From: an uncultured delta proteobacterium
GTDB lineage: Bacteria > Desulfobacterota > Syntrophorhabdia > Syntrophorhabdales > WCHB1-27
Direction of reading: 5' to 3'
Assembly: GCA_963717985.1 (NCBI GenBank)
Contig: CAVQYC010000001.1
Location: 456,712-520,711 of the forward strand
DNA: 64,000 nt
A program made the position numbers and the translations under genes. Positions 24,371 to 46,370 of the stretch are shown here, one piece after another. How positions within the stretch are numbered: position 1 is the first letter of the stretch; each line of letters starts with the position of its first letter. Under the pieces are notes generated by a model. The model worked only from the letters and a program-made list of their open reading frames with translations, was not told the DNA's origin and searched no databases.

Positions 24371-24961
24371 TTACCCCTTAAGTCTTTTCCTGATGCCCAC
24401 AAGGCCAAGGAGGCCGGGGGCAAGAAGCAGTAGTGTCGGGGGAACGGGAACCGGGCTGTAGGTAGCAACGAACCCTACCTTTGTCGGGTCGATGTTCCCC
24501 GTGAGAACGATATTCACAAAGAAGGTGTCACCGGCGACAAGCGCGGCTCCTCCGGGAGCGAAAAACTGCACCTCCGTGGGCGAAACCGAGACCATGGTCC
24601 AGAGTGCACCGGCTGTGGTGTTGCTGAAGCGTGTCGTGAGATAGGAGCCAAACGGGTCATTCCCCGGGGTAGGAGTCAAATCGATCGCTACTCCCGCGGG
24701 CACGGTAAATTGAGTGCCGAGCACGAAGTCGAAATCCCGCGTCGCCGGGCCCGTCCAGGTCAACGTCCCCGCGAGGAGGCCCGGGATACCCCACGCTGAA
24801 GTTCCCCCAGGGCCTTGGGTATTCCAAGACCACGCGTTGCCGTACGTGTCCACTCCCGTGGCTCCAAGGCCCACGAAGCTGACATCGGCCTTTGCAGAGG
24901 CGGCGAAAACCATGATCACCATTGCCAGAACGATCGTTGTAGCCACTAACATTCTTTTCAT
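24371..24961 (-). CDS. PEP-CTERM/VPLPA-CTERM exosortase-sorted surface protein
   Basis: Signal peptide ending ASAKA; C-term VPVPPTLLLLAPGLLGLVGIRKRLKG. Confidence 0.88.
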   Translation of the reverse strand: MKRMLVATTIVLAMVIMVFAASAKADVSFVGLGATGVDTYGNAWSWNTQGPGGTSAWGIPGLLAGTLTWTGPATRDFDFVLGTQFTVPAGVAIDLTPTPGNDPFGSYLTTRFSNTTAGALWTMVSVSPTEVQFFAPGGAALVAGDTFFVNIVLTGNIDPTKVGFVATYSPVPVPPTLLLLAPGLLGLVGIRKRLKG

Positions 24962-25059
24962 AAGCTTTTCTCCTTTTGATTTTGACTAACGCCGGAACAT
25001 GAACTGCCTGTTGAGACTCCCCACCCCCTTTCGCTTTCATGCGTGAAAGCGTTTTTTTT

Positions 25060-28904: not shown

Positions 28905-30665
28905 ATGGCATACGATGCGACAAAGATGGCAGACTGGCAGATTTCCGAAGCGGCTGAGCAACACATGAAATCAGTCTGGCAGTTGGGCGAAGAGATGGGG
29001 CTGAAAAAGGATGAGGTAATCGGATACGGCCGTATAGGCAGGGTCGATTTCATGAAGATCATCGACCGGCTGAAGGACAAGCCGGACGGCAAGTATATCG
29101 AGGTCACCGCTATTACCCCGACCCCGCTCGGTGAAGGGAAAACGACGGTCTCCATGGGGCTCGTGGAAGGTATGGGCAAGAGGGGATGGAAGGTATGCGG
29201 TGCGATCCGCCAGCCCTCGGGCGGCCCTACCATGAACGTCAAGGGGAGTGCGGCAGGCGGCGGTAATGCCCAGGCCATCCCTCTGACGGAGTTTTCCCTC
29301 GGTCTTACAGGCGATATCAACAATATCATGAATGCCCACAACCTCGCCATGGTGGCCCTTACCGCGCGCATGCAGCATGAGAGGAACTATACGGATGCGG
29401 AGCTTGCAAAAAGAACGCTGAAACGGATCGACGTCGACCCCAGGAACGTCCAGATGGGCTGGATTATGGATTTCTGTGCCCAATCCCTCCGGAATATGGT
29501 GATCGGTCTTGGCGGCAGGATGGATGGGTTCCTCATGCAGTCCCGCTTCGATATCGCGGTCAGCTCGGAGGTCATGGCCATCCTTGCCGTCGTGAGAGAT
29601 CTGAAGGACCTGCGCGAGCGGCTCGGCAAGATCACCGTGGCCTACGACAAGTCAGGCAAGGCTGTGACCTGTGAAGACCTCGAGGTGGCAGGTGCCATGA
29701 CTGCGTTCATGAGGGAGAGTATCAACCCGACCCTGTTGCAGTCGGTCGAGGGGCAGCCCGTGTTCGTCCATGCGGGACCTTTCGCGAACATCGCCGTGGG
29801 GCAGTCCTCGATCATCGCGGACCGTGTGGCCCTGAAGCTTTTTGACTACAACGTGACGGAGAGCGGGTTTGCCGCCGACATCGGCTTCGAGAAGTTCTGG
29901 AACGTCAAATCGAGAATCAGCGGGCTCAAGCCGAACGTCTCCGTCCTCACGACGACGATCCGCGCCCTCAAGATGCACGGCGGCGGGCCGCGGGTGGCGC
30001 CGGGGCTCCCTCTTCCCGAGGAATATAAGAAGGAGAACCTGGGCCTGCTTGAGAAGGGCGCTGCCAATATGGTCCACCATATAAAGACCATAAAACAGTC
30101 GGGGATGAAGCCCGTCGTCTGCATTAACTGGTTCCACACGGATACCAAGGACGAGATCGCGCTGCTCCGCAGGATTGCCGAAGGGGAAGGCGCGCGGGTG
30201 GCCGTGTCGACCCACTGGCTGAACGGCGGTGACGGGGCCCTGGAGCTTGCCGACGCAGTGCATGACGCGTGCGAAGAAAAGTCGGATTTCAAGTTCCTCT
30301 ATCCCCTCGAAATGCCGCTCCGTCAGAGGGTCGAGATGGTGGCGAAGAACGTCTACGGCGCCGACGGGGTCTCGTGGACGCCCGAGGCGGAGGCCAAGGC
30401 AAAGGCCTTCGAGGCAGACCCCAGCAAAAGGGACTATTACACCATGATGGTCAAGACCCACCTCAGCCTGTCCCACGACCCGAACGTCAAGGGCGTGCCC
30501 AAGGGCTGGGTGCTGCCGGTAAGGGATATTCTGATCTTTTCCGGCGCCAAGTTCCTCTGTCCCGTGACCGGAGCGATCAGCCTCATGCCGGGCACCAGCT
30601 CCGACCCCGCCTTCAGAAGGATCGACGTGGACGTCAATACGGGCAAAGTAACAGGGATGTTCTAG
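28905..30665 (+). CDS. fhs: Formate--tetrahydrofolate ligase
   Basis: [48 protein letters not shown]. Confidence 0.97.
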
Positions 30666-30780: not shown

Positions 30781-31665
30781 ATGGCCGCAAAGATTATTAG
30801 CGGGACGCAGATCGCAGCAGAGATCAGGGAAGAGATTAGGCAGGAGGTGGTGCGGCTCAAGGAACAGCATAACCTGGTGCCGGGTCTTGTCACCATCCTC
30901 GTCGGCGAGAACGCGGCCTCGGTGAGCTATGTCACCGCCAAAGGGAAGACCTCGAAGGAGCTGGGCTTTTATTCCATCCAGGACAGCCAACCGGCGGACC
31001 TCGCGGAAGACGCGCTCCTGGCACTCATCGACAAGTACAACAAAGACCCGAAAATCCATGGTATACTTGTACAGCTTCCCCTGCCGAAGCACATAAACGA
31101 GACGAGGGTGCTCTACGCTATCGATCCGAATAAGGACGTCGATGCCTTTCATCCGGTGAATGTTGGCAAGCTCGTCATTGGGGAGGCCAACTACTATCCC
31201 TGTACGCCCTACGGGATCCAGCAGCTCCTGGTCAGGAGCGGGGTCAAGACCGACGGCGCGGAGGTTGTTGTGGTGGGAAGGAGCAACATCGTGGGCAAGC
31301 CGATCGCCAATATGATGCTGCAAAAGGCAAAGGGCGCCAACGCCACGGTTACTGTCTGCCATACGGCAACGAAGGATATGGCCTTTCATACGAAAAGGGC
31401 GGACATTCTTATTGTTGCCGCAGGGAGGCCCAAGGCGATTACGGCGGACATGGTGAAAGAGGGTGTGGTGGTCATCGATGTGGGCGTCAACCGGATCGGC
31501 ATGACCCCCGAAGGAAAGGCCAAGCTCTCCGGCGATGTGGACTTTGAGGCGGTGAAGGAAAAGGCTTCGCTGATCACCCCCGTGCCCGGAGGGGTCGGCC
31601 CCATGACGATCACCATGCTCATGCTCAACACGGTGAAAGCCGCAAAAGTGGCGGGAGGAGTTTAA
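30781..31665 (+). CDS. folD: Methylene-THF dehydrogenase/cyclohydrolase
   Basis: GILVQLPLP, KDVDAFHP, PCTP, GRSNIVGKP, TPVPGGVGPMT. Confidence 0.97.
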   Translation: MAAKIISGTQIAAEIREEIRQEVVRLKEQHNLVPGLVTILVGENAASVSYVTAKGKTSKELGFYSIQDSQPADLAEDALLALIDKYNKDPKIHGILVQLPLPKHINETRVLYAIDPNKDVDAFHPVNVGKLVIGEANYYPCTPYGIQQLLVRSGVKTDGAEVVVVGRSNIVGKPIANMMLQKAKGANATVTVCHTATKDMAFHTKRADILIVAAGRPKAITADMVKEGVVVIDVGVNRIGMTPEGKAKLSGDVDFEAVKEKASLITPVPGGVGPMTITMLMLNTVKAAKVAGGV

Positions 31666-31680
31666 CTAAGGAGGACGTTC

Positions 31681-31896
31681 ATGGCGGACTATGTGTACGA
31701 AGAAAAGGAAGACTTCGAAGGTAAAAAAGTGCGGGTGCTGGGCTCCACCTATGAGCCGGGCAAGCCCGAAGAAAAGAGTGACTGGACGCAGAAGCTCGGA
31801 AGCGAGAGCGACCGGCTCGGCTACCTGAAAAGCGCCCTCCGGTACTGGTACAGCACCGACTGGTTTGGCAGTGAGAAGAGGAAGCAGGATGCTTGA
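31681..31896 (+). CDS. Hypothetical 71 aa protein inside the Wood-Ljungdahl operon
   Basis: SD AAGGAGG, fills the gap between folD and acsD. Confidence 0.75.
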   Translation: MADYVYEEKEDFEGKKVRVLGSTYEPGKPEEKSDWTQKLGSESDRLGYLKSALRYWYSTDWFGSEKRKQDA

Positions 31897-31911
31897 AAGC
31901 GCTGCGGTGCA

Positions 31912-31948
31912 GTCGATAGGTCTTATAAGTCCTATAATGCCTATCGAC
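31912..31948. repeat. Intergenic TAGGTCCTAT-type decamer repeat, copy 1 (others at 35009-35039, 48100-48147, 53133-53170)
   Basis: ATAGGTCTTATAAGTCCTAT-like units just after stop codons. Confidence 0.7.
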
Positions 31949-31980
31949 TGCCGAATTGATTGCTATAAGGGAGGCAACCA

Positions 31981-32922
31981 ATGAGTTTTGCGATACCCAA
32001 AATCAGCTATACCGGAAAGATCAGGGAAGTGACTATCGGGAGCGGAGCCTCTGCCGTCACGGTGGGGGGCGGGTCCTGTTACCCCTTCTACACCTTCGAG
32101 GGGGCCATGCCTCATCCGCCGCGGGTCGCCTTCGAGGTATGGGACTATGCGCCCGAGGATTGGCCTGCCTGGGCCGTCGAGCCCTATAAGGACGTGATCG
32201 CAGACCCCGCGGCCTGGGCCCGCAAGTCCGTGGAAACGTACCATGCGGAGATGATAGCCCTTCTTCTGAAGAGCGCCGACCCGAACGGTATGGACCGGCC
32301 CGTGGAAGAGGTTGTCTCCTCCGTGAAGGCGGTCTCGGACGCAGTTTCCGTGCCGCTCATCGTCTGGGGCTGCGCAAACGATGAGAAGGACGCCCTTATG
32401 CTCCGCCGCGTGGCGGAGGTCTGCGAGGGCAAAAACGTGGCCCTCGGCCCGGTCACGGAGAAGAATTACAAACAGATCGGGGCCATGGCCATCGGGTACA
32501 ACCAGGTGGTGATCGCCTCCACACCCATCGACGTGAACCTCGCAAAGCAGCTCAACATCCTTCTTGGGAACTTGGGTGTGCCGGAGAACCGGCTGCTCAT
32601 CGACCCCACCACAGGGGGCCTGGGCTACGGTCTCGAATATTCCTATTCGGTGATGGAGCGCGACCGCATGGCTGCCCTCACCCAGGAGGACGTCAAGCTC
32701 CAGACGCCGATCATCTGCAACCTTGCGAACGAGGTGTGGAAGACAAAAGAGGCGAAGACGAAAAAAGAGGACAACCCGAAGCTCGGCGACGAGAAAAAAA
32801 GGGCCGTCCTCATGGAATCGGTCGCCGCCATGACGCTTGCGATGGCAGGCGCCGATATACTCATCATGAGACACCCCGAGGCGATCGCCTACACCAGGCA
32901 GATGTTCGGGGAACTGGCTTAG
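31981..32922 (+). CDS. acsD: Corrinoid Fe-S protein small subunit
   Basis: MPHPPRVAFEVWD, PLIVWGC, PIDVNLAKQLN, GLGYGLEYSYSVMER. Confidence 0.94.
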   Translation: MSFAIPKISYTGKIREVTIGSGASAVTVGGGSCYPFYTFEGAMPHPPRVAFEVWDYAPEDWPAWAVEPYKDVIADPAAWARKSVETYHAEMIALLLKSADPNGMDRPVEEVVSSVKAVSDAVSVPLIVWGCANDEKDALMLRRVAEVCEGKNVALGPVTEKNYKQIGAMAIGYNQVVIASTPIDVNLAKQLNILLGNLGVPENRLLIDPTTGGLGYGLEYSYSVMERDRMAALTQEDVKLQTPIICNLANEVWKTKEAKTKKEDNPKLGDEKKRAVLMESVAAMTLAMAGADILIMRHPEAIAYTRQMFGELA

Positions 32923-33052: not shown

Positions 33053-34999
33053 ATGTCAGAAGAAAAGATACGGAGTGTCGATAAGGCGACCCTCGAGCTC
33101 CTTGACAAAGCGGAAAAAGAAAAGATCTCCACGGCCTTCAGCAGGGCAGACGATTTGAAGCCCTGCCCCATAGGGGTGGAGGAAAGCTGCTGTAAGATAT
33201 GCGCCATGGGGCCGTGCAGGATGCCCCGGTCGAAGAAAGGTGAAGAGAAGAAGCGAGCCGGAGTTTGCGGCGCCACCATCGACACGGTCGTGGCGAGGAA
33301 CTTCGCCCGCAAAATAGCCGCTGGCGCGGCGGCCCACTCCGACCACGCCCGGGAGGTCGCCGAGACCTTCTTGAAGGCTGCCAGAGGCGAGGCCCAGGGG
33401 TTTGCCATCAAGGATGAGGTAAAGCTTCTCGAAGTGGCCCTCGACTTCGGCATCCCCATAGAAGGGAGAGACCCGAAAGAGATCGCCATCGACGTCGGGG
33501 AAAAGGCACTCGCCGAGTTCGGCAAGCAGCACGGAGAGGCCGTCTACGTCAAGAAGGCGCCCCTCAAACGGCAGGAGATCTGGCGGAAGCACGGCGTTGT
33601 CCCCAGGGGTATCGACAGGGAGGTGGTGGAGGTGATGCACCGCACCCACATGGGCGTCGACCAGGACTATAAGCACCTCATGCTCCAGGCCACACGCAGC
33701 GCCCTTGCGGACGGCTGGTCCGGCTCCATGATCTCCACGGACCTCCAGGACATCATGTTCGGCACCCCCGTGCCGGTCCTGGGCGCTTTCAACCTGGGCG
33801 TGCTGAAGGAAGACCAGGTCAATGTCGTGGTCCACGGCCATGAGCCGCTCTTACCCGAGCTCCTCGTGACTGCGTCCCGCGACCCTGAGATAAAGCAGAT
33901 GGCGGAGAAGGCGGGCGCCAAAGGCATCAACCTCGCCGGCATGTGCTGCTCCGCGAACGAGGTGCTCATGCGCCACGGCATCCCCTGTGCGGGGAACTTC
34001 CTCCAGCAGGAGCTGGCGCTTGTGACCGGCGCGGTCGAGGTGATGACGGTAGACGTCCAGTGCGAGATGCAGGGCCTCGCCGATGTGGCGGAGTGCTTCC
34101 ATACTAAGCTGATCACCACGTCCGACAGGGCCAAGATAGAACATGCCGAGCACATCGAGTTTCATCCCGAGACCGGCCTCGACACGGCAAAGAAGATCCT
34201 CAAGATGGCCATCGAGAATTACCCGAACAGGCGCCACAACGTCGCCATCCCCCAGTACTCCCAGGACGGGGTGGTCGGCTTCTCACACGAGACGATCAAC
34301 TACCTTCTGGGCGGGCTTTTCCGCGCGAGCTACAAGCCGCTCAACGACAACATCATAAACGGCCGCATCCGGGGCGTGGCAGGCGTGGTGGGCTGCAACA
34401 ACGCGAGGACCCCCCACGATCAGGGCCACCTGGAGATGATCAAGGAGCTGCTCAAGAACGACGTGATCGTCCTCTCCACGGGCTGCTCCGCCATGGCCTG
34501 CGGCAAGGCGGGGCTTCTGACCCCGGAGGCCGCCCGGGCCTATGCGGGCTCGGGCCTCGCGGAGGTGTGCGAAACGGTCGGCATCCCCCCTGTCCTCCAC
34601 CTGGGCTCCTGCGTCGACAACTCCCGCATCCTCATCGCGGCGACGGCTATGGTAAAAGAAGGGGGCTTGGGCGACGACATCTCCGATCTGCCCGCGGCAG
34701 GCGCCGCTCCCGAGTGGATGAGCGAGAAGGCCCTGTCCATCGGCCAGTACTTCGTCGCTTCCGGCGTCTACACCGTCTTCGGCACCACGTGGCCGACCTT
34801 CGGCAGTGATGCCCTGACAAAGCACCTCTTCGAAGAACACGAGGAGATGTACAAGGGCATGTGGGCATTTGAGGCCGACCCCGTAAAGGCGGCCGCCCTC
34901 ATGATCGCTCACATCGACAAAAAGAGGAAGGCCCTGGGCCTCGAGAAGGCCAGGGAAAGGGTGCTCTTCGATATGGCAATGAGAAGGGCCATGGCATAA
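33053..34999 (+). CDS. cooS: Ni-dependent CO dehydrogenase catalytic subunit (AcsA/CooS)
   Basis: CCKICAMGPC, HGH, GMCCSANE, DVQC, GVVGCNN, GSCVDN, MSEKA. Confidence 0.97.
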   Translation: MSEEKIRSVDKATLELLDKAEKEKISTAFSRADDLKPCPIGVEESCCKICAMGPCRMPRSKKGEEKKRAGVCGATIDTVVARNFARKIAAGAAAHSDHAREVAETFLKAARGEAQGFAIKDEVKLLEVALDFGIPIEGRDPKEIAIDVGEKALAEFGKQHGEAVYVKKAPLKRQEIWRKHGVVPRGIDREVVEVMHRTHMGVDQDYKHLMLQATRSALADGWSGSMISTDLQDIMFGTPVPVLGAFNLGVLKEDQVNVVVHGHEPLLPELLVTASRDPEIKQMAEKAGAKGINLAGMCCSANEVLMRHGIPCAGNFLQQELALVTGAVEVMTVDVQCEMQGLADVAECFHTKLITTSDRAKIEHAEHIEFHPETGLDTAKKILKMAIENYPNRRHNVAIPQYSQDGVVGFSHETINYLLGGLFRASYKPLNDNIINGRIRGVAGVVGCNNARTPHDQGHLEMIKELLKNDVIVLSTGCSAMACGKAGLLTPEAARAYAGSGLAEVCETVGIPPVLHLGSCVDNSRILIAATAMVKEGGLGDDISDLPAAGAAPEWMSEKALSIGQYFVASGVYTVFGTTWPTFGSDALTKHLFEEHEEMYKGMWAFEADPVKAAALMIAHIDKKRKALGLEKARERVLFDMAMRRAMA

Positions 35000-35059: not shown

Positions 35060-37264
35060 ATGTCAAAGATCATTTGTTCTGCGGCCATAAGAGGGGCGCA
35101 GAAGATATACGAGAAATCGGAAGGGCTTTATAAAAAGGCCCTCGAGAAGTACGGACCCGAGCAGGAGATAGGCTTTCCCAACACCGCGTACTATCTCCCT
35201 ATCATCTACGCCATGACGGGCATACCGGTCGCGAAGCTCTCGGAGATGCAGAAGGTCTTCGACTTCTGCAAGAAGCTGATACCGGCCCCCGTCAGGGAGA
35301 CCACCCCCCTGCCTTATCTCGCCCCCGCTCTCGACGCGGGCATGGCAACCTTTTTCGTCGAGGAGATGGCGGAGGCGATCAGGTACCTCGAAAACCCGGA
35401 CTGCTACGTCGTCGGGGAAGACCCCACGCCAGGGAACATCTGGCTGGGGGCCGCCTCCGACCTCATTTTCAGGAAGAGGGGCGTCGAGTTCGTCGACGGC
35501 ACCGCCCCCGGCTTCGCCGCCATCGCAGGCGCCGCGCCCGATGCACAGACGGCGGCAAAGATCGCTCTAGAGTTGCAGGAGAAGAACCTCTACGTCTTCA
35601 TGTGCGGTGAGAACGGCGGCAAAAGGTTCTCCGAGCAGCTCGTGGAGGCCGGCGTCCAGGTCGGATGGCCCACGCGCCTCGTCCCCTTCGGCCCCGACAT
35701 CCAGCAGGCGGTCTTCGCCATAGGCTTTGCCTGCCGCGTGGCCATGGCCTTCGGCGGCATCAAGCCCGGCGACTTCAGAAAGAACCTCATCTACAATAAG
35801 GACAGGACCTACGCCTTCGTTATGGCGCTGGGCGACGTCACGGACGAGTGGTACGCCAATGCCGCGGGCGCCATCAACTGGGGCTTCCCGACCATCGCCG
35901 ATACCCCCATCCCCGAGGTCCTGCCTACGGGCATCTGTACCTACGAGCACGTGGTCTCCAACATTGCCCACTCCCACATCACCGAGAAGGCGGTAGAGGT
36001 CCGGGGCCTCAAGGTCCAGGTCGCGAAGGTCCCCATCCCCGTCTCCTACGGCCCTGCATTCGAGGGGGAGAGGGTCCGCGGCGAAGACATCTATCTGGAG
36101 ATGGGCGGCGGCAAGACTATTGCCGTCGAATGGACCACCTCGAAACGGATGGAAGAGGTGGAAGACGGGCGCGTCGAGGTGATAGGACCCGACGTCAAAG
36201 ACGTGAGCCCGGGCACGCGCCTCCACTTCGCCATGGTGGCAGAGGTGGCGGGCAGGGGCTTTCAGGAGGACTTCGAGCCGATCCTGGAGCGGCAGAACCA
36301 TCACCTCATCAACCAGGCCCAGGGCATCATGCACATAGGCCAGCGCGACATCGCCTGGCTGCGCATCTCCAAGCAGGCGGTCGAGAAAGGCTTTACTCTG
36401 GCCGATATAGGCAGGATCATCCATGCCAAGTACCACCAGGACTTCGGCGCCATCTTCGACAAGGTCCAGGTGAAGATCTATACGGAGGAGGAGAAGGTCA
36501 GAGAGGTCCTGGCGATGGCCCGCGCCTCTTACAACCACAGGGACGCCCGCGTGGAGAACATGACCGACGAGACGACCGATACCTTCTACTCCTGCACCCT
36601 CTGCCAATCCTTCGCGCCGAACCACGTCTGCGTCATCGCCCCCGAGAGGACGGGCCTCTGCGGCGCCTACAACTGGCTCGACTGCAAGGCCTCCAATGAG
36701 ATCAACCCGGAAGGGCCGAACCAGCCCATCCAGAAGGGGGAGGTCCTCGATGCGAGGTACGGCCAGTTCAAGGGGGCCAACGACTTCGTCTACAAGGCGT
36801 CACGGCAAAAGGTCGAGAACGTCAGCTTCTACAGCCTCATGGTCGATCCCATGACGACCTGCGGCTGCTGCGAGTGCATCGCCGCGGTGCTGCCCATGGC
36901 GAACGGCATCATGACCGTTGACCGGGATTATACGGGCATGACCCCCTGCGGCATGAAGTTCACGACGCTGGCGGGTTCTGTCGGCGGCGGCGCCCAGTCG
37001 CCGGGATTTTTAGGCCACAGCAAGTATAACATCACCCAGAAGAAGTTCCTTGTCGGCGACGGCGGCCTTCTGCGCATGGTCTGGATGCCGAAGAGGCTGA
37101 AAGAAGAATTGGGCGAACGGCTGAAGAAACGGGCGGCCGAGCTGGGTGTGCCCGACCTCATCGACAAGATCGCCGATGAGACGGTGGCGACGACCGAGGA
37201 AGAGGTCATCGCCTACTGTACGGAAAAGGGACATCCGGCGATGACCATGGAGTCGATTATGTAA
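35060..37264 (+). CDS. acsB: Acetyl-CoA synthase subunit (bacterial type)
   Basis: FPNTAYYLP, CTLCQSFAPNHVC, CGAYNWLDC, TTCGCCEC. Confidence 0.97.
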   Translation: MSKIICSAAIRGAQKIYEKSEGLYKKALEKYGPEQEIGFPNTAYYLPIIYAMTGIPVAKLSEMQKVFDFCKKLIPAPVRETTPLPYLAPALDAGMATFFVEEMAEAIRYLENPDCYVVGEDPTPGNIWLGAASDLIFRKRGVEFVDGTAPGFAAIAGAAPDAQTAAKIALELQEKNLYVFMCGENGGKRFSEQLVEAGVQVGWPTRLVPFGPDIQQAVFAIGFACRVAMAFGGIKPGDFRKNLIYNKDRTYAFVMALGDVTDEWYANAAGAINWGFPTIADTPIPEVLPTGICTYEHVVSNIAHSHITEKAVEVRGLKVQVAKVPIPVSYGPAFEGERVRGEDIYLEMGGGKTIAVEWTTSKRMEEVEDGRVEVIGPDVKDVSPGTRLHFAMVAEVAGRGFQEDFEPILERQNHHLINQAQGIMHIGQRDIAWLRISKQAVEKGFTLADIGRIIHAKYHQDFGAIFDKVQVKIYTEEEKVREVLAMARASYNHRDARVENMTDETTDTFYSCTLCQSFAPNHVCVIAPERTGLCGAYNWLDCKASNEINPEGPNQPIQKGEVLDARYGQFKGANDFVYKASRQKVENVSFYSLMVDPMTTCGCCECIAAVLPMANGIMTVDRDYTGMTPCGMKFTTLAGSVGGGAQSPGFLGHSKYNITQKKFLVGDGGLLRMVWMPKRLKEELGERLKKRAAELGVPDLIDKIADETVATTEEEVIAYCTEKGHPAMTMESIM

Positions 37265-37279
37265 GAAAACTCAAGACTG

Positions 37280-37435
37280 AAAAGGCAGCGCGTCACGCGC
37301 TTGAAAAGGGAAGACGGTGCAACTCCGTCACGGGCCCGCCGCTGTGAGGGGGGACGAAGGGCGCAAAAGACCACTGGGAAACCCCGGGAAGGTGCGCTCA
37401 GTAAGGATGAACCCCGAAGTCAGAAAACCTGCCTG
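37280..37435 (+). ncRNA. Cobalamin riboswitch between acsB and acsC
   Basis: AAAAGGGAA..GGTGCAACTCC..GCCCGCCGCTGTGA..CCACTGGGAAACCCCGGGAAGG..AAGTCAGAAAACCTGCC. Confidence 0.9.
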
Positions 37436-37500
37436 GCAGTCTTACCCAAACCCCTCTCCCCGCGGTCGGGAGCGGAAGCTCACTTGATAAGGAGACTGCT

Positions 37501-38835
37501 ATGGGACTCACCGGTATCCAGATATTCAAGCTTCTTCCCAAGACCAATTGCGGGGAGTGCGGCTCCCCCACCTGCCTCGCCTTTGCCATGGCGCTTGCCG
37601 CGGGCAAGGCGGAGCTCGAGAAATGTCCGACTATCTCTGATGAGGCAAAAGCGCAGCTCAGCGAGGCGAGCGCCCCGCCCATCAGACAGTTGACCGTAGG
37701 CACCGGCGACTATGCCGTGAAGCTCGGCGGTGAGACAGTCATGTTCCGCCACGAGAAGACCTTCTTCAATAAGCCGGGTCTCGCCATCCTCATCACCAGT
37801 CGCATGGACGACAAAGAGGTATCCCGCCGCCTCGCTGTCCTTTCCGAGCTCCAGTACGAGCGCGTGGGCCTCAACTTAAGACCTGAGATCGTTGCCGTCA
37901 AGGACGAGGGCGATAAAGCGCGCTTCCTCGAGATCGTGAAGAAGGCAGCGGCTACACCCTATAGCCTCATCCTGATGTCTGCGGACCCCGCCGCCATGAA
38001 AGAGGCGCTGGAGGCCGCAAAGGAGAAGAAGCCCCTCATCTATGCCGCAACGATGGAGAACGCAGATGCCATGGCCGCTCTTTCAAAAGAGTACGCCTGC
38101 CCCCTTGCCGCAAAAGCAGAGGGGCTCGAAAGCCTTGCCGGCTTAAGCGAGAAACTCGTTGCTCTTGGCGTCAAGGACATGGTCCTCGATTCCGGCGCCA
38201 GGACGGTGAAGGAGGCCTTCGCCGACCAGGTCGCCATCAGAAGGGCGGCCCTTCAGTCCAAGTTCAAGCCCTTTGGCTTCCCTACCATCACCCTGCCCTG
38301 CGAGATGACCGACGACCTCATGAAGGAGACGCTCATCGCATCACTCTTCATCGCCAAGTACGCAGGCATCATCGTCCTGTCCGACTTTGCGGGCGAGAAC
38401 GTCTTTCCCCTCCTCCTCGAGAGGCTCAACATCTATACAGACCCGCAGCGGCCCATGACCACCGAGCAGGGTATCTACCCCATCAATAACCCCGACGCCT
38501 CATCGCCCGTCCTCGTGACCTGCAACTTTTCCCTTACCTATTTCATCGTCTCAGGCGAGATAGAGAACTCGCGGGTGCCCTCCTGGCTTTGCGTCATGGA
38601 TACGGAAGGTCTCTCGGTCATGACCGCCTGGGCCGCCGGCAAGTTCGTCGCCGATACGGTCGGCCCCTTCATCAAGAAGAGCGGCATCGCGGAAAAGGTC
38701 AATCACAAGAAGCTCATCATCCCCGGCTACGCGGCAGGCATCCTGGGCGATCTGGAAGAAGAGCTGCCCGGCTGGGAGATCACGGTCGGTCCCCGTGAGG
38801 CCGCCCATCTACCGGCTTTCTTAAAGAACAGGTGA
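37501..38835 (+). CDS. acsC: Corrinoid Fe-S protein large subunit
   Basis: LPKTNCGECGSPTCLAFA, MFRHEKTF, NIYTDPQ, TAWAAGKF. Confidence 0.97.
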   Translation: MGLTGIQIFKLLPKTNCGECGSPTCLAFAMALAAGKAELEKCPTISDEAKAQLSEASAPPIRQLTVGTGDYAVKLGGETVMFRHEKTFFNKPGLAILITSRMDDKEVSRRLAVLSELQYERVGLNLRPEIVAVKDEGDKARFLEIVKKAAATPYSLILMSADPAAMKEALEAAKEKKPLIYAATMENADAMAALSKEYACPLAAKAEGLESLAGLSEKLVALGVKDMVLDSGARTVKEAFADQVAIRRAALQSKFKPFGFPTITLPCEMTDDLMKETLIASLFIAKYAGIIVLSDFAGENVFPLLLERLNIYTDPQRPMTTEQGIYPINNPDASSPVLVTCNFSLTYFIVSGEIENSRVPSWLCVMDTEGLSVMTAWAAGKFVADTVGPFIKKSGIAEKVNHKKLIIPGYAAGILGDLEEELPGWEITVGPREAAHLPAFLKNR

Positions 38836-38844
38836 GGAGGAGAC

Positions 38845-39724
38845 ATGCTGATCATAGGTGAAAACCTGAATGTGATATCGAAGAAGATCGGTCAGGCGTT
38901 AAAAGACAGGGACCCGGCGCCCATCCGGGAGATGGCGGAGGCCGAAACCAAAGCAGGCGTCGACGTGATCGACCTCAACCTTGGCCCGGCCCGCAAGGCA
39001 GGGCGCCGAGCTGATGGAGTGGGTGGTCAAGACCGTGCAGGAGGTGACCGACGTGACGCTCTGCCTCGACACGACGAACATTGAGGCCATAGAGGCGGGC
39101 CTTAAGGTTTGCAAGAAGAAGGCCCTCATCAACTCGATCTCCGCGAGACCCGAGAGGATCAGTGCCCTCATGCCTCTCGCGAAAAAGTATAACGCCGCCT
39201 ACATCGCCCTCAGCCTGGGCGTGGAAGGCATACCAAGGGATGCGAACGAGCGCGCAATGCTTGCCGCCGAGCACCTGGCCAAGGCCGCCGAGTACGGCAT
39301 CCCGGAAGAGGACATGTGGATCGACCCGATAGTCCTTCCCACGAACACCCAGCAAATCCAGGTGCAGGGCTGCACGGAGTTCATGATGATGCTCGGGGAC
39401 ATCGCCCCGGCTTGTAAGTCGACCTGCGGCCTCTCGAACATCTCGAACGGCGCCCCCGACCACCTCCGTCCCATCCTGAACAGGACCTACGCCATCTTTT
39501 TGAAGCGCTACGGCATGTACTCCGCTATCGCCGACGCCTTCGACCAGGAGCTTCAAACGATTGCGAAAGGCAAAAGACCCGAGATCGAGGCCCTCGTCCA
39601 CAAGGTGATGGATGGGGAAGCGGTCAGCCTCACGGGCCTCTCAAAAGAAGAGACCGATTATGTCAAGACGGCCAGGGTCCTCATAGGGCAGACGCTCTAC
39701 TCCGACTCGTGGCTCGACCTGTAG
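38845..39724 (+). CDS. acsE: Methyl-THF:corrinoid protein methyltransferase, frameshifted by one extra G at 39001-39003
   Basis: MLIIGENLN..IDLNLG joins GAELMEW..LCLDTTN..INS..WIDP..GLSNISNG if one G is removed (292 aa). Confidence 0.9.
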
Positions 39725-41173: not shown

Positions 41174-41527
41174 ATGGAGGCGCAAGAGGCACTCGATTTC
41201 ATCAAGGCCCAGGATCCGGAAGGGGGCGAGCGTCTGAAGCGTCTGCTCGACAAGAAATCTGTGCTGGCTGACGGGAACGTCTACGGCGAGCGTTTCACCG
41301 ACCGCCAGTTTAGCCTGGTTTTTGATCCGCTTCTGCGTTCCGCTTATGAAAAGGCGCAGATATTGGAGCTTTTGAGCGTGAAGGACGAGAAAGTCGCATC
41401 CCTTGCGGCACAGCTTTCCATGGATAAGGCGCGTGTCTTTGCGCACCTCCTGGACCTGGTCAAGAGGAACATGGTGGAAATCGCAGGGTTCGACGAGAGA
41501 CACCCCGTCTTCAAAAAGAGGTGGTAA
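41174..41527 (+). CDS. Hypothetical protein with C-terminal winged-helix-like region
   Basis: ILELLSVKDEKVASLAAQLSMDKARVFAHLLDLVKRNMV; co-oriented within the hdr cluster. Confidence 0.7.
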   Translation: MEAQEALDFIKAQDPEGGERLKRLLDKKSVLADGNVYGERFTDRQFSLVFDPLLRSAYEKAQILELLSVKDEKVASLAAQLSMDKARVFAHLLDLVKRNMVEIAGFDERHPVFKKRW

Positions 41528-41532
41528 GGGCT

Positions 41533-44500
41533 ATGGATAAGGTTGGAAAAGTACTGATCATCGGAGGCGGCATCGGGGGGATGGAGGCTTCCCTCAACCT
41601 CGTGGAAGCCGGCTTCAAGGTCTATCTGGTTGACGAGAAGCCGAACATCGGCGGCAAGATGGCGCAGCTCGACAAGACATTCCCGACCAATGACTGCTCC
41701 ATGTGCATTATGGCGCCGAAGCTCGTCGAGGTAGGAAGGAACGCGAACGTCGAGTTACTCATGGGCAGCGAGGTGGTGGCCCTTGAGGGGCAGCCCGGTA
41801 ATTTCACTGCCGTCATCAAGAGGCGACCGCGGAGGATCATTAAAGAGAAGTGTACGTCCTGCGGCCTCTGTGCGCCTTACTGTCCCCTTGAAGTCCCGGC
41901 GGATTACAATGAAGGGCTTTCACGGAGAAGCGCAGCCTTCATCAACTTCCCCCAGGCCATCCCCTCCACCTACTCCATCGATCGGGAGATACCGCCCTGC
42001 GTCAACAGGTGCCCCATCAACATCAATGCGCGCGACTACGTGGGCCTCATCGCCCAGGGTAGGTTTCTGGAAGCCCTCGACGTCATACGCGAGAAGCTGC
42101 CCTTTCCAGGCACCATCGGCCGCATCTGCAACCACCCCTGCGAGGACGCATGTCTCAGGGGCGAAAAGGTCGACCAGCCTCTGAGCATATGCGCGCTGAA
42201 GCGGTTCGTCGCCGACTACGAGACGGGCCGGCGGGAGATGCCCGTGCCCGGGACAGGGCCGGACAAAGGCAAGAAAGTGGCGGTGATCGGCGGCGGCCCG
42301 TCGGGCATGGCATGCGCCATAAGCTTGCGGAAGGCGGGTTATGGCGTCACGATCTTCGAGGCCCGGAATAAGCTGGGTGGCATGCTCTATTGGGGCATCC
42401 CGGCCTATCGTCTGCCCAAGGACGTGCTCGACCGTGAGACGTCGATTGTCGAGGCCATGGGGATCGAGGTCCGCTACGGAACGCAGGTGGGCAAGGATGT
42501 ATCTCTGAAAGATATCCGGAAAGACTTCGATGCGGTCTATGCCGGCTGCGGCGCACAGGGGGGCAGAAAGATCGGCCTTGAGGACGAGGACGCCCCCGGC
42601 GTGATGACCGGCGTGGAGTTCCTGCGCCTTTCCAATGAGAAAAGGCCCCTGGATGTCCGTGGTAAGGTAGTGGTGGTGGGCGGCGGCAACGTGGCGGTGG
42701 ATGTGGCGCTCACTGCGCGGCGTCTGGGCAAGGCGGAAGTGCATATGGTCTGCCTGGAGAAGTGGGACGAGATGCCCGCGAGCAAATGGGAGGTCGAGCA
42801 GTGCATCGAAGAGGGCATAAAGATACATACCTCGTGGGGCCCGTGCCGGATCCACCAGGAGAAGGGACATGTCAAGGCCCTCGAGTTCAGGCGGTGCACT
42901 GCCGTATTCGATGAGATGGGGCGGTTCAACCCTTCTTTTGCGGAGGGCGTCAGGAAGACTTACGAGGCCGACATGGTCATCCTCGCCATCGGCCAGTCTC
43001 CGGAAACGGGGTTTTTGAAAGAGCTGCCCGAGGTCGAGATGCTCGGCGGGGGGTGGATCAAAGCAGACCCTGTCTCCCTGGCGACGGGGCTTCCAGGCGT
43101 TTTTGCCGGGGGTGATATCGTGACCGGCCCGAAAATGGCGATCGACGCCGTGAGCCAGGGGCAAGAGGCGGCCGAGTCGATCGTACGGTACCTTGAAGGG
43201 AGAGACCTGAAGGAGGGGCGGTGCGCAAAAGAGGCGGAGCTGGTCGTTGAGGTGCCCGATGGGATCGAGCGGCGTGCCCGCGCGGTTGCCCCCTCTATCC
43301 CTGTCGACAGCAGGAAGGGTTTCGAGGAAGTGGAGCTGGCCTTTGACGAGGCGACTGCGAGGCTTGAGGCGGAGCGCTGTCTGAACTGCAGGCGCTGCCT
43401 CGGATGCAAGCTCTGCGAAGAGGCGTGTAAGCCCGGCGCCATCAACTATCTGCAAGGGCCGGAAGAGGTGCGGGTCGATGTGGGAAGTGTGATTGTCGCG
43501 GCGGGCCTCGATGAGTACGACCCTTCCCAGAGGCCGGAGCTTGGCTACGGCGTGTACAAGAATGTGCTGACGAGCACCGAGTTCGAGCGTATTTTATCCG
43601 CCACGGGGCCTACATCGAGCATGGTCATGCGTCCCTCCGACGGGAAGGTGCCGAAGAAGGTGGCGTGGCTCCAGTGCGTAGGGAGCCGGGACAAGACAAA
43701 CGAATACTGTTCGTCCGTCTGCTGCATGTATGCAACGAAAGAGGCGATCATCGCGAAAGAGCATCAGAATGATATAGAGCCGACGATCTTCTATATGGAC
43801 GTAAGGGCCTTCGGCAAGGGGTTCGACCAGTACTACGAGAGGGCGCGGCACGAGCACGGCGTCCACTACGTGAAATCTTCCATATCGAGGATCCTGGAAG
43901 ACCAGGAGACGACCGATCTCGAAGTGGTCTATGTCGATGAGGAGGGCCGGGTTACTTCGGAGATGTTCGACATGGCGGTCCTGTCGGTGGGCATACGGCC
44001 GAGCCGGAGCCTTCCGGGCCTCGCCCGTGCGCTCGGTATCGGGCTCAACGAGTACGGCTTCGTGCAGTCGTCCTCACACAATCCCGTGCTCACGACAAAG
44101 GCAGGTATCTACGTGGCCGGCGCGTCGGAAGCGCCTAAGGATATCCCCGAGACGGTGACCCAGGCATCGGGCGCCGCATGTGAGGCCGCCTCCGTCATCT
44201 GCGAGGTGCGGGGCAAGGATTTCGTGGTCAAGCCCTTGCCTGAAGAACGTGAGGTGCCTGCCCTTGAGCAGCCCCGGATCGGTGTGTTTATCTGCCACTG
44301 CGGCGTGAACATCGGCTCGGTGGTCAACGTGCCGGAGGTGAGAGAGTATGCGAAAAGCCTCCCCAACGTGGTGGTGGCCGATGAGAACCTCTTTACCTGT
44401 TCTCAGGATACGCAGGAGAAGATGAAGCACCTGGTCAACGAGTACGGCCTCAACAGGGTGGTCGTCGCCTCCTGTTCGCCGCGCACGCACGAATTCCTCT

Positions 44501-45955
44501 TCCGCTCGACCATCCGAGAAGCGGGCCTTAACAAGTACCTCTTCGAGATGGCCAACATCCGGGACCAATGCTCCTGGGTCCACATGAGGGACAAGGATGG
44601 TGCCACGAAAAAGGCGAAAACGCTGGTCAGGATGGCAGTGACCAACGCAAACTATATCAAGCCCTTGAAAGAAGTCGCCATAGGGGTGAACAAGAGCGCC
44701 CTTGTGTTCGGCGGCGGCCTGGCGGGCATGACCGCGGCCCTCAAGCTTGCGGGGCAGAACTTTGAGGTATCCCTCGTGGAGAAAGAGGCCGCCCTCGGCG
44801 GCAACCTGCGCCATATCCATACGACTTTGGATGGGACGAACGTCCGGGAGTTCCTCGCGAACCTGACCGAGCAGGTTGTGAGCCACCCGCTCATACACGT
44901 CATGACGGAAACGACCGTGGTCGACCACTCCGGTTTTCAGGGTAACTTCGAGACCGGCCTCCAGCACATGCCGACAAAGACCACTACCAGAGCTGAAACA
45001 CGGAATTTTGGTGGTGGCTACGGGAGGCGAGGAATTAAAACCGAAAGGCCAGTACGGGTACGGAGAAGACGTCCGGGTCATGACCCAGATGGAGCTGGAA
45101 GCGCGGCTGGCGGAAAAAACGCTGCCCCCGGCGCAGCGGCTTACCATGATCCAGTGCGTGGGGTCACGGAACGAGGAGCGGCCCTACTGCAGCCGGATTT
45201 GCTGCTCCAACGCGATAAAGCATGCGATAGAGCTCAAGGAAGCCAACGCCGGCCTTGACGTGGTGATCCTCTTCAGGGACGTGATGACTTACGGGTTCCT
45301 GGAGAAGTACTACCTGAAGGCGCGGAAAGCCGGGGTGCGGTTCCTGCGCTACGAGAAAGAGCGCCCGCCCGTTGTCGCCGGGAGAAACGGCAGGCTGACC
45401 CTTACCTGCTACGACCCCTCGATCATGGAAGAGCTGACCTTCGATACCGATCTTCTGGTGTTGAGCGCCGCGACAGTAGCCGGGCAGAACGAAGCGCTCG
45501 GGAACCTTCTCAAGGCCCCGAGGACCCAGGAAGGCTTCTTCCTGGAGGCGCACATGAAGCTGAGACCCGTCGATTTTGCATCCGACGGCATGTACCTGTG
45601 CGGTCTTGCCCATTCACCGAAGAACATGCGGGAGACCATCACCCAGGCAGAGGCTGCTGTTGCCAAGGCCTGCACCGTATTGTCGAAAGACCGGATACTT
45701 GTCGGCGGTGTCGTTGCGGAGGTGCAGGCCGATAAGTGCGCCGCCTGCCTCACGTGCGTCCGTGCATGCCCTTACAGCGTGCCCGTCATCAACGCGAAGG
45801 GAGAGGCGGAGATCGATATCAGCAAGTGCAAGGGGTGCGGCAGTTGCGCAGCCGAATGTCCCGCGAAGGCCATAGACCTGATGCACTACCGGGATATCCA
45901 GATTATCGAGAAATCGGGGGCGATGCTTTCGGAGGGAGGGTGCGATGCAGTTTGA
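41533..45955 (+). CDS. hdrA: Large HdrA (HdrL-type, with GltD-like NAD(P)H module), ~1473 aa, frameshift at ~44989-44992
   Basis: GGGIGG, FPTNDCSMC, inserted PCVNRCP..GRIC.HPCE..GGGPSG..GGGNVA module, CSSVCC, CHCGVNI, ASCSPRTH, C-terminal ferredoxins; frame jumps at ACCAGAGCTG. Confidence 0.9.
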
Positions 45956-46370
45956 GCCTGAAATTGTCGCGTTTTGTTGCGAATATTGAGCGTATACCGC
46001 TGCGGACCTGGCAGGTTCGATGAGGCTCACTTATCCGACAAATGTGAAGATCGTCAAGGTACCGTGCACCGGCAGGGTGGATATCATCCATATGCTCAAA
46101 GCCTTCGAGAATGGTGCCGACGGCGTTTTTGTGGCGGGTTGCCTGGAGGGGGAGTGCCATTTCCTTAAGGGGAACCTGCGCGCCAGGAAGCGTGTGGCGC
46201 AGGTGCAAGCACTGCTCAACGAGTGCGGCATCGGAGGAGACCGAATAGCAATGTACAACCTTTCTTCCGCTCAGGGGCAGAGGTTTGCCGAGATCAGCCG
46301 CGAGATGACGGAGAAGGTGCGGCAGCTCGGACCCAACCCCGCGAAGAAGGGGAGAGCAAAGGCAGCATGA
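45945..46370 (+). CDS. mvhD: MvhD-like [2Fe-2S] subunit with selenocysteine (TGA 45987-45989)
   Basis: MQFEPEIVAFCCEY-U-AYTAADLAG in frame with PCTGRVD..GC..GECHF..GN; hairpin 46003-46019; selA in window. Confidence 0.92.

Follow-up and report, generated by a model that had tools for sequence, protein, structure and literature searches.

The window analysed here is a stretch of 64,000 nucleotides from an uncultured delta proteobacterium of the Syntrophorhabdales, and it holds an acs operon with the gene order fhs, folD, acsD, acsA, acsB, riboswitch, acsC, acsE and hdr-like genes. The features that matter for what follows are these (SD, Shine-Dalgarno sequence; CFeSP, corrinoid iron-sulfur protein; H4folate as annotated):

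31981-32922, acsD, farther upstream of the riboswitch
35060-37264, plus strand, acsB, acetyl-CoA synthase (CODH/ACS alpha/beta subunit; PF03598, PF19436, PF18537; NF040764, 1075 bits)
37266-37449, plus strand, full-length class-I cobalamin riboswitch aptamer, RF00174 (Rfam scan)
37273-37279, plus strand, P1 5' strand AAGACUG, beginning 9 nt past the acsB stop (Rfam alignment)
37334-37338, plus strand, L5 loop GCCCG, putative kissing-loop partner (Rfam alignment)
37418-37433, plus strand, B12 box AGUCAGAAAACCUGCC, near-invariant across the leader alignment (Rfam alignment)
37434-37443, plus strand, P1 3' strand region UGGCAGUCUU, with P1 proper being CAGUCUU at 37437-43; also complementary to 37492-37501
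37455-37459, plus strand, anti-SD UCUCC, sharing positions with the 5' strand of P13 and complementary to GGAGA of the SD
37456-37472, plus strand, P13 hairpin: CUCCC (37456-60), L13 CGCGGUC (37461-67), GGGAG (37468-72)
37489-37495, plus strand, acsC SD AAGGAGA, 6 nt ahead of the AUG and invariant in all leaders
37501-38835, plus strand, acsC, large/gamma (corrinoid-binding) subunit of CFeSP (PF04060 and PF03599; NF003195, 634.6 bits)
38845-39724, plus strand, acsE, methyl-H4folate:CFeSP methyltransferase, starting 10 nt past acsC

An Rfam scan of the whole window matched RF00174 at 37266-37449 on the plus strand with 110.3 bits (E 9.2e-27), against a gathering score of 31.5 bits, and the match covers model positions 1-189 of 189. 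The aptamer begins 2 nt past the acsB stop codon (UAA, 37262-37264) and ends 51 nt short of the acsC start, which at 37501 is the earliest in-frame start possible and encodes an M1 that is invariant among homologues. The four-way-junction core is aligned at high posterior probability and comprises the B12 box, L4 GGUGCAACUCC, P6 ACCACUGGG, which is of the GCCACUG type in the Rfam alignment, and the P6 extension. The P1 duplex amounts to -9.3 kcal/mol, and P5 consists of GG at 37332-33 with CC at 37339-40. Unconstrained minimum-energy folding of the whole leader misfolded the aptamer (z = 0.33). An aptamer of this family would be expected to bind a cobamide. No plus-strand terminator-like site lies between the aptamer (37449) and acsC (37501), and the platform has no U-tract. 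A scan for promoters, which covers the sigma-70-like type only, found no plus-strand site between aptamer and acsC, and for that promoter type the idea of the element as the 5' UTR of an internal transcript was set aside. The earlier note, written from the letters of this DNA, had placed a cobalamin riboswitch between acsB and acsC, inside the acs operon and directly before the corrinoid-binding subunit, with acsD upstream and outside its control and no U-rich terminator after the aptamer; the full-length covariance-model match, the acsB and acsC profile matches that flank it, the position of acsD and the terminator scan bear out each of these points. Searching the literature found nothing that links a cobalamin riboswitch to acsC, CFeSP or a Wood-Ljungdahl cluster.

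Nine loci fetched through exact-protein look-ups, all from a single Syntrophorhabdales sub-clade, provided seven distinct leaders, individually designated by L numbers below. RF00174 is kept in 9/9 of these loci (AcsC 81-95% identical) at 104-121 bits, and it sits directly past the acsB stop. The riboswitch is absent from six nearer relatives (AcsC 74-82%), as it is from a further 80 species-representative acsB-acsC loci; the Rfam scans of this absence survey covered 55 loci, and no matches were returned by nhmmer with the single window leader as query against 80 acsC loci or by a B12-box regular expression run over the acsC loci. Among the seven leaders, 9/45 consensus pairs show compensatory changes on both sides, and P1 itself covaries, with AAGACUG/CAGUCUU becoming AGGACCG/CGGUCUU in L085. 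We have next to no doubt that the element is a genuine riboswitch under selection.

Past the aptamer, P13 is extended by outer pairs between CC at 37453-54 and GG at 37474-75. Its consensus, CUCCY-CGNGG..-RGGAG, holds in 7/7 distinct leaders, and RNAalifold independently arrives at this hairpin, with a C-G pair changed to U-A in L086 and to U.G in L082 and L088. L13 reads CGNGG in every one of the seven, 18-23 nt past ACCUGCC, and complements the CCCG of L5 if its N is bulged. L5 is either GCCCG or ACCCG, with CCCG invariant throughout, and the invariance of both loops leaves no covariation between L5 and L13. The family consensus for L5 is UCCCG, and the cobT switch of Alkalihalobacillus halodurans has GCCCG (PMC10653944). 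Validated kissing loops include that of P. megaterium metE, in which L5 CCG pairs with L13 CGG, as well as the bulged ones of A. halodurans cobT and env8HyCbl (PMC10653944). By analogy, the CGNGG/CCCG pattern matches these validated kissing loops, and a kissing loop between L5 and L13 would be expected to form in the acsC leader. The 3' strand of P13 is an SD mimic, or decoy, and its 5' strand is an anti-SD whose U-C-C core is invariant among leaders. Since the P13 5' strand (37456-60) shares nucleotides with the anti-SD (37455-59), P13 and the repressive pairing are mutually exclusive. In L082 and L088 the fold of lowest energy is the anti-SD:SD helix, which has 4-6 bp. P13 and the SD are spaced 16-18 nt apart in 6/7 leaders and are separated by a 97-nt structured insertion in L088, and comparison of the linkers across leaders revealed no conserved SD-sequestering hairpin between them.

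Two other readings of this region were considered. Were the kissing loop made through CGGG in the 3' strand of P13, an OFF switch would follow; this is disfavoured by AAGG in L086, UGGG in L088 and the invariance of the CGNGG loop. A leader peptide or uORF following the decoy GGGAG was rejected, as UUG or AUG candidates appear on reading the sequences in some leaders only and in a different frame.

The P1 3' strand offers a separate contact with the ribosome-binding region. The earlier note had claimed that it can pair with the acsC SD, GCAGTCTT at 37436-37443 being complementary to GAGACTGC at 37492-37499, and had suggested an ON switch. The pairing is present and longer than had been described, reaching 10 bp between UGGCAGUCUU (37434-37443) and GAGACUGCUA (37492-37501). 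RNAduplex gives it -15.3 kcal/mol, where shuffled sequences average -8.3 (p about 0.01), and no 14-mer elsewhere in the aptamer pairs equally well. Significance is reached in two leaders only, those of the window and of L081, the closest relative (95%). The pairing is weak in L082 (p 0.19), L085 (0.15) and L086 (0.13, where the partner is codons 2-3 and not the SD), and is absent from L087 (p 0.70) and L088 (p 0.49). A G-to-A change in the spacer of L082 and L084 disrupts it and is uncompensated. When the P1 3' strand is free, the pairing is the minimum-energy platform fold in the window, L081, L082 and L085, and once it has formed, opening the ribosome-binding region costs 6-7 kcal/mol more. 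Activation is still the most plausible reading of the element, but the evidence that had been offered for it is confined to the window and L081, and this pairing is most readily taken as a reinforcement specific to the lineage, one that would work to the same effect as the main model. The ON logic is instead supported by the conserved P13 with its putative kissing loop and its anti-SD 5' strand.

We propose that the element is a class-I translational switch in which a cobamide frees the acsC SD and turns acsC on, and we give this model, taken whole, an even chance of being correct. With ligand bound, L5 (GCCCG) would kiss L13 (CGCGG) and thereby stabilise P13, so that the anti-SD UCUCC would be held by the decoy GGGAG, P1 would likewise keep its 3' strand, and the strong SD AAGGAGA would be left free for translation of acsC. 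With ligand absent, P13 would not be stabilised and the anti-SD would pair with the SD, aided by a small hairpin that the freed P13 3' strand could form with GCUC; in the lineage of the window, the P1 3' strand could also cover the SD and start codon through its 10 bp. Either of these SD pairings would block initiation. From the arrangement of these parts we infer that the output is probably initiation of acsC translation, and on its sign we lean slightly toward activation. To our knowledge, CFeSP is useless without a corrinoid and no B12-independent substitute for it exists. B12 riboswitch circuits on B12-dependent pathways (eut via EutX/Rli55 and pdu via AspocR) result in net activation, and nearly all of the characterised cobalamin riboswitches known to us repress. 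In the btuB leader, the P13 5' strand also resembles an anti-SD and the 3' strand an SD region when the sequence is read, and because of this similar anatomy P13 by itself does not fix the sign. That a natural translational ON cobalamin riboswitch within an operon licenses the CFeSP corrinoid subunit (and, by polarity, MeTr and the Hdr-like module) only when cobamide is at hand is a claim that we make tentatively, and we rate it a little below an even chance.

Partition functions served to calculate SD accessibility, and the energy needed to open the ribosome-binding site was computed under bound and unbound constraints. The anti-SD:SD and P13 states lie within about 4 kcal/mol of each other in 5/7 leaders (window -1.2, L082 -2.7, L088 -4.2, L087 +0.5 and L085 +1.1), and the P13 state is favoured without any kissing-loop bonus by 7.5 kcal/mol in L081 and 3.9 in L086. 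Locking P13 raised SD accessibility in L082 (0.06 to 0.29), L087 (0.51 to 0.74) and L088 (0.01 to 0.73), in the last of which the 97-nt insertion folds in such a way that the domain remains closed by the anti-SD and the SD. The effect was flat in L081, L085 and L086. Accessibility fell in the window (0.29 to 0.14), where the SD stays shut with P13 locked because a weak local hairpin, CUCACUU/AAGGAG, forms. These energy calculations carry little weight and are in part circular. E. coli btuB, a validated OFF switch that served as the control, has an opening cost of 8.8-8.9 kcal/mol in every state, and because the control shows no difference between states, the ON direction that accessibility and opening cost take in some leaders is not decisive.

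The same fold of the window bears on a conventional OFF translational switch of the btuB type, which we regard as unlikely but as a serious contender. Under it, ligand-stabilised P13 would free the linker GCUCACUU to fold onto AAGGAG and mask the SD, and in the unbound state the P13 3' GAGC would pair with GCUC as an anti-sequestrator and leave the SD open; physiologically, less AcsC and AcsE would be made at high free cobamide, for example where extra CFeSP competes for scarce cofactor. Family precedent speaks for this reading, since cobalamin riboswitches are described as OFF switches (PMC11477304), and so do the CUCACUU-GAU-AAGGAG hairpin in the P13-locked fold of the window, with the accompanying drop in SD accessibility, and the SD-mimicking strands of the btuB P13. 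The anti-sequestrator GAGC-GGAA-GCUC can also be read in the window, L085, L087 and L088. The sequestrator, however, is a weak 6-bp helix that contains a bulge and has a 3-nt loop, and CUCACUU/AAGGAG occurs only in the window and L081, being ACCACUU in L082, CUAAC in L085, CUU.. in L086 and L087, and missing from L088; no conserved hairpin of the leaders corresponds to the stable 6-7 bp hairpin that holds the ribosome-binding site of btuB itself. In addition, the SD is very strong (UAAGGAG), the energy model gives the opposite direction in L082, L087 and L088, and the anti-SD UCUCC, once freed, could still block the SD in the unbound state. Nor is there a clear physiological rationale for repressing a subunit that depends on B12 and has no known B12-independent stand-in, and if the switch were OFF this would call for a new physiological explanation.

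Very improbable, in our judgement, is that pairing of the P1 3' strand with the SD is the switch itself, as in the add riboswitch, with P13 and the kissing loop incidental. The length, energy and significance of the pairing in the window and L081, its place as the minimum-energy platform fold in four leaders and the opening cost that it adds all argue for such a role, but it is not conserved, its break in L082 and L084 is uncompensated, and the validated route in cobalamin riboswitches is the L5-L13 kissing loop and not P1 (PMC10653944). A functional aptamer of either sign whose main output is something other than SD accessibility seems to us rather unlikely; Rho-dependent termination, RNase processing, stability of the distal acsC-acsE-hdr-like mRNA and translational uncoupling of acsB from acsC would all belong here. 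Such outputs would suit the polycistronic setting, in which no internal sigma-70-like promoter or intrinsic terminator was detected, and the position of the aptamer, which adjoins the acsB stop in every relative, so that ribosomes finishing acsB arrive at the base of P1. L088 moreover tolerates its long insertion between P13 and SD, a feature that might be unnecessary if the switch were purely local to the SD. Against this, the invariant triad of anti-SD, decoy and SD points to control of initiation, as do the constant distance from P13 to the SD in six of the seven leaders and the strength of the SD, which lies 6 nt ahead of the AUG.

In textbooks, cobalamin riboswitches figure as feedback repressors of the genes that supply B12, and we know of a single described natural case that activates (2023), which is transcriptional and acts on a biosynthesis gene. 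In that switch, A. halodurans cobT, ligand leads to a bulged L5-L13 kissing loop that stabilises P13 to the exclusion of a repressive structure, resulting in activation (Procknow et al. 2023, mBio, PMC10653944). ON regulation by a corrinoid riboswitch is thus no longer unprecedented (PMC10653944). The acsC element shares with cobT a class-I type aptamer, L5 GCCCG and a P13 that shares nucleotides with the repressive structure. In cobT that structure is an intrinsic terminator, whereas the acsC element has none and the competing partner is the SD; it may therefore work like the cobT switch, yet differs from it in type. The cobT switch also lies in the 5' UTR of a biosynthesis gene and gives its strongest response to cobinamide, while the acsC element is intercistronic and precedes a subunit of a corrinoid-dependent enzyme, and the activation demonstrated for cobT is for acsC a prediction.

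With E. coli btuB and env8HyCbl, the acsC element has in common an RF00174 or Cbl-family aptamer, an L5-L13 kissing loop (putative in acsC), translational output without a terminator (likewise predicted for acsC) and P13 strands that resemble SD and anti-SD. The ribosome-binding site lies within P13 in env8HyCbl and in a separate stable hairpin in btuB, so that ligand hides it, whereas the real acsC SD lies 16-18 nt past P13 (97 nt in L088) with no conserved sequestering hairpin. Their targets are B12 uptake genes; that of the acsC element is B12 use. Like the Vibrio vulnificus add adenine riboswitch, which is translational and ON, the acsC element has a P1 3' strand that, in the window and L081, can base-pair with the SD and the start region, and for this reason a ligand-stabilised P1 would free the ribosome-binding site; unlike add, it belongs to another aptamer class and does not conserve this pairing across the clade. 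The EutX/Rli55 and AspocR circuits of Enterococcus and Listeria act in trans, by termination of an sRNA or an antisense RNA. If ON, the acsC element would resemble them in coupling B12 sensing to net activation of a B12-dependent pathway, but it would do so in cis, on the very mRNA that encodes the B12-dependent enzyme.

Should the ON reading hold, no riboswitch would have been shown before this one to activate a B12-dependent enzyme in cis, and it would be the first translational ON architecture for a cobalamin aptamer. It would also represent a new physiological use, in which apoprotein output is matched to cofactor and a B12-dependent central carbon pathway is licensed by feed-forward control. 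The P13 module, an anti-SD plus a decoy SD ahead of the real one, would then suggest a simple evolutionary inversion from OFF to ON. The model would further bear on the cobamide dependence of syntrophic Syntrophorhabdales and could supply a natural template for B12-inducible expression tools.

Within the operon, acsD, acsA and acsB are unaffected by the riboswitch, and control from this position would set subunit ratios, with AcsC and AcsE varying against AcsA, AcsB and AcsD. Because acsE starts so soon after acsC it is probably under polarity, and acsE and the downstream hdr-like genes are probably controlled as well, via coupling or polarity. In the window, a 1-nt insertion near 39004 splits acsE; in relatives the gene is intact and encodes 292 aa.

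Scanning the whole window against Rfam returned three RNAs (RF00174, RF03167, and RF00023), the first of which is a full-length cobalamin riboswitch aptamer at 37266-37449 (+) that matched model positions 1-189 of 189 at 110.3 bits (E 9.2e-27; gathering score 31.5 bits). Pfam and NCBIfam scans of plus-strand ORFs place it inside a Wood-Ljungdahl operon, and the coordinates, motifs, and gene calls of the earlier note, which had put a cobalamin riboswitch between acsB and acsC, were correct throughout these scans:

28905-30665 (+), fhs
30781-31665 (+), folD
31981-32922 (+), acsD, CFeSP small subunit
33053-34999 (+), acsA, CODH
35060-37264 (+), acsB, ACS, followed by the riboswitch
37501-38835 (+), acsC, CFeSP large subunit, corrinoid- and [4Fe-4S]-binding, after the riboswitch
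from 38845 (+), acsE, methyltransferase
beyond acsE (+), ferredoxin-like gene, HdrB-like CCG protein, 117-aa protein, and giant HdrA-like flavoprotein

Counted from the acsB stop codon (UAA, 37262-64), the aptamer begins 2 nt downstream and its P1 5' strand 9 nt downstream (window 37262-37279), and the latter distance is the same in all relatives. The base of the aptamer would thus be within reach of ribosomes terminating on acsB, and translation of acsB could reset the folding of the riboswitch or modulate it. From the end of acsB to acsC, neither an intrinsic terminator nor a sigma-70-like promoter was detectable on the plus strand, which agrees with the claim that no terminator follows the aptamer. 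Within the acsB coding region, ~260 nt upstream of its stop, a terminator-like hairpin and T-run (GATTTTTAGG, 36981-37004, +) is probably a chance match; it could attenuate read-through into the riboswitch. The 315-nt folD-acsD gap (31666-31980) had no Rfam match at the gathering threshold, and a 71-aa ORF was called in the equivalent gap of L081, an acsC locus from a relative. No paper was found that connects acsC, CFeSP, or an acs operon with a cobalamin riboswitch, and none that describes an intercistronic cobalamin riboswitch of the acsB-acsC kind. The aptamer is known but its genetic context is new, within an operon and ahead of a corrinoid-dependent enzyme subunit.

The nearest named AcsC homologs belong to Syntrophorhabdales MAGs (Desulfobacterota), and the genomic context of AcsC homologs was taken stepwise down an identity ladder from 95% to 74%.

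AcsC loci of relatives: AcsC identity to the window, acsB-acsC gap
L081: 95%, 237 nt
L082-L084: 93%, 235 nt
L085: 87%, 227 nt
L086: 86%, 224 nt
L087: 86%, at least 280 nt upstream of acsC (the contig begins within the gap)
P0035: 82%, 125 nt
L088/L089: 81%, 302 nt
L090: 80%, 16 nt
P0058: 80%, 76 nt
L092: 79%, 19 nt
P0094: 77%, 44 nt
L094: 74%, 112 nt

All nine loci from L081 to L089 carried an RF00174 match (104-121 bits) directly after the acsB stop. The gaps of P0035, L090, P0058, L092, P0094, and L094 (16-125 nt) are too small for the ~180-nt aptamer, and Rfam scans of L090, L092, and L094 gave no match. Species-representative genomes supplied 80 further acsC loci (61-75% identity) from Syntrophorhabdus, Syntrophia, Desulfobacterales, and Dehalococcoidia among others, in which the acsB-acsC order was near-universal and gaps were mostly 13-300 nt; no Rfam family matched in the 55 of these that were scanned, which included every gap of at least ~85 nt. 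Because the aptamer is present in 9/9 close loci and unmatched in the remoter loci scanned, the riboswitch is an insertion specific to one Syntrophorhabdales sub-clade, which also has downstream Fer4/CCG/HdrA-like genes in common. Firmicutes acetogens were compared through the transcriptome literature instead of the sequence survey, and papers on E. limosum, A. bakii, and Sporomusa place cobalamin riboswitches at genes for biosynthesis and transport and at no others.

In the alignment of the seven distinct leaders (window, L081, L082, and L085 to L088), the aptamer core is near-invariant, and RNAalifold found both-sided compensatory changes in 9 of 45 consensus pairs. P1, for example, reads AAGACUG/CAGUCUU in the window and AGGACCG/CGGUCUU in L085, and in L086-L088 unrelated sequences keep the complementarity. 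The near-invariant core and compensatory changes mark an aptamer maintained by selection, not a decaying relic. Its score, its B12 box, the covariation, the L5 consensus, and the presence of a matching L13 firmly place the element in RF00174, and cobamide binding is predicted.

A hairpin of the form (C/U)UCC(C/U)-CGNGG(1-3 nt)-(A/G)GGA(G/A) lies 18-23 nt past the B12 box in all seven leaders, and in the window it consists of:

37456-60 (+), P13 5' strand, CUCCC
37461-67 (+), L13 loop, CGCGGUC
37468-72 (+), P13 3' strand, GGGAG

RNAalifold predicted this hairpin independently; four leaders close the loop with C-G, two with U.G, and L086 with U-A. The loop motif CGNGG, invariant save N (C, G, or A), is complementary with N bulged to the invariant CCCG of L5 (GCCCG/ACCCG; window 37334-38). 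The functional kissing-loop pairs of P. megaterium metE join L5 CCG with L13 CGG, the kissing loop of A. halodurans cobT (L5 GCCCG) is bulged, and that of env8HyCbl has one bulge and one mismatch (PMC10653944). Because the loop-L5 complementarity matches these validated corrinoid kissing loops, the hairpin at 37456-72 is identified, on sequence grounds, as P13/L13. Its 5' strand includes UCUCC (37455-59), fully complementary to GGAGA (37491-95), the core of the acsC SD, and its 3' strand GGGAG resembles an SD; the true acsC SD, UAAGGAGA, lies 6 nt before the AUG and is invariant in all leaders. The P13-to-SD distance is 16-18 nt except in L088 (81% AcsC identity), where a structured insertion (L088:2875-3000) stretches the linker to 97 nt. 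Several hairpins are predicted in this insertion, and its two CGGGU motifs are also complementary to the L088 L5 (ACCCG).

In corrinoid riboswitches, the ligand stabilizes the L5-L13 kissing loop and hence P13, and the sign of regulation is set by the competitor of P13 (PMC10653944). Here the bound state would hold the P1 3' strand, the P13 5' strand (anti-SD), and L13, the same elements that are able to pair with the acsC ribosome-binding region. In constrained folding, the P13 and anti-SD:SD states were near each other in energy in five of the seven leaders; the anti-SD:SD state minus the P13 state came to -1.2 (window), -2.7 (L082), -4.2 (L088), +0.5 (L087), +1.1 (L085), +3.9 (L086), and +7.5 (L081) kcal/mol. 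The lowest-energy structures of L082 and L088 contain the anti-SD:SD helix; in L088 the insertion forms separate branches, so that the domain is still closed by anti-SD and SD. When the bound state was modeled by a 6 kcal/mol P13 bonus and a blocked L13, predicted SD accessibility rose in L082 (0.06 to 0.29), L087 (0.51 to 0.74), and L088 (0.01 to 0.73) and stayed flat in L081, L085, and L086. The cost of opening the ribosome-binding region was never higher in the locked state.

The earlier note had also proposed that the P1 3' strand can pair with the acsC SD. This pairing is real and longer than described, as the complementarity of GCAGUCUU (37436-43) to GAGACUGC (37492-99) extends to a 10-bp helix of UGGCAGUCUU (37434-43) with GAGACUGCUA (37492-501) that reaches the A of the start codon. 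RNAduplex gave -15.3 kcal/mol for the window duplex versus -8.3 +/- 2.5 for shuffles (p ~0.01), and the P1 3' region is the best SD-pairing 14-mer of the aptamer, all others being weaker. What did not hold was its conservation, since only L081 is identical to the window. L082/L084 carry an uncompensated G-to-A that breaks the pairing (-8.6 kcal/mol, p 0.19), the L085 version is rich in wobbles (p 0.15), in L086 it has moved to codons 2-3 (p 0.13), and L087 (p 0.70) and L088 (p 0.49) lack it. Our reading is that the pairing is genuine but specific to its lineage, and that it is not the conserved switch.

As in A. halodurans cobT, P13 would compete with a repressive structure, but the acsC element is not of that type because it has no terminator. 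Unlike btuB and env8HyCbl, it places the acsC SD outside P13 and provides no sequestrator dedicated to it. As a control, the same calculation was run on a validated translational OFF riboswitch, E. coli btuB (aptamer L096:185-374, 87 bits; L5 ACGCG; P13 CAUCA/UGAUG with loop CGCGU; RBS hairpin GCAUCC/GGAUGC), and each of the three states cost 8.8-8.9 kcal/mol to open. Since this cost is equal in all states, the method is blind to OFF logic even where it is present, and its agreement with activation in the acsC leaders therefore carries little weight. The btuB P13 has anti-SD-like and SD-like strands as well, so such anatomy is compatible with an OFF switch, and the case for activation rests on four other points. 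In the bound state, no hairpin that could sequester the very strong SD is conserved. Stronger, partly conserved sequestering partners would, in the folding model, be available only in the unbound state. The activating cobT switch offers a mechanistic precedent. B12 repression of CFeSP would make little sense because CFeSP has, to our knowledge, no B12-independent substitute, whereas a cofactor-licensed apoprotein does make sense.

The logic of the acsC riboswitch is probably inverted and translational, and we lean slightly toward activation of acsC by a cobamide as its sign. Repression by a cobamide appears unlikely. It is consistent with the btuB anatomy and with the predicted SD accessibility in the window, which fell from 0.29 to 0.14 upon P13 locking, but that drop is due to a weak local hairpin (CUCACUU/AAGGAG), the only btuB-like sequestrator candidate and one that is not conserved among the leaders. 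Outputs through Rho, RNase, or stability take up the remaining probability.

Indel errors of the kind seen in long-read assemblies seem to affect the window and several relatives. In the window, acsE is split into two overlapping frames (38845-39084 and 38981-39724) by one inserted nucleotide near 39004 (GGGCGCC, versus GGGGCC in L081); the gene is intact in relatives (292 aa), and the frameshift is probably a long-read assembly error, a real pseudogene being possible. The HdrA-like flavoprotein (41521-45258) has 1245 aa versus 1466-1474 aa in relatives and resumes in another frame past ~45258 (about 45200-46000), which indicates a second frameshift near 45258. Split genes also occur in relatives (acsB in L085 and a CCG-domain gene in L081), and indel errors seem common in these assemblies. 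An indel within the window's own leader is possible; in the alignment, this leader matches L081 and L082 at every functional element discussed.

The second RNA in the window is a c-di-GMP-I-GGC riboswitch (RF03167, 25056-25155, -; 68.8 bits, gathering score 59), and the small ORFs after it (24657-25040 or 24371-24961) had no Pfam match. Just downstream of this unit, a 351-aa ORF (22606-23661, -) showed a weak match to REP_ORF2-G2P (PF23343, a replication-associated protein family; 27.1 bits, just below cut-off), which may point to a small integrated element of a rolling-circle or filamentous-phage-like kind. The third RNA is a tmRNA gene (RF00023) at 5673-6022 (+), with 176 bits.
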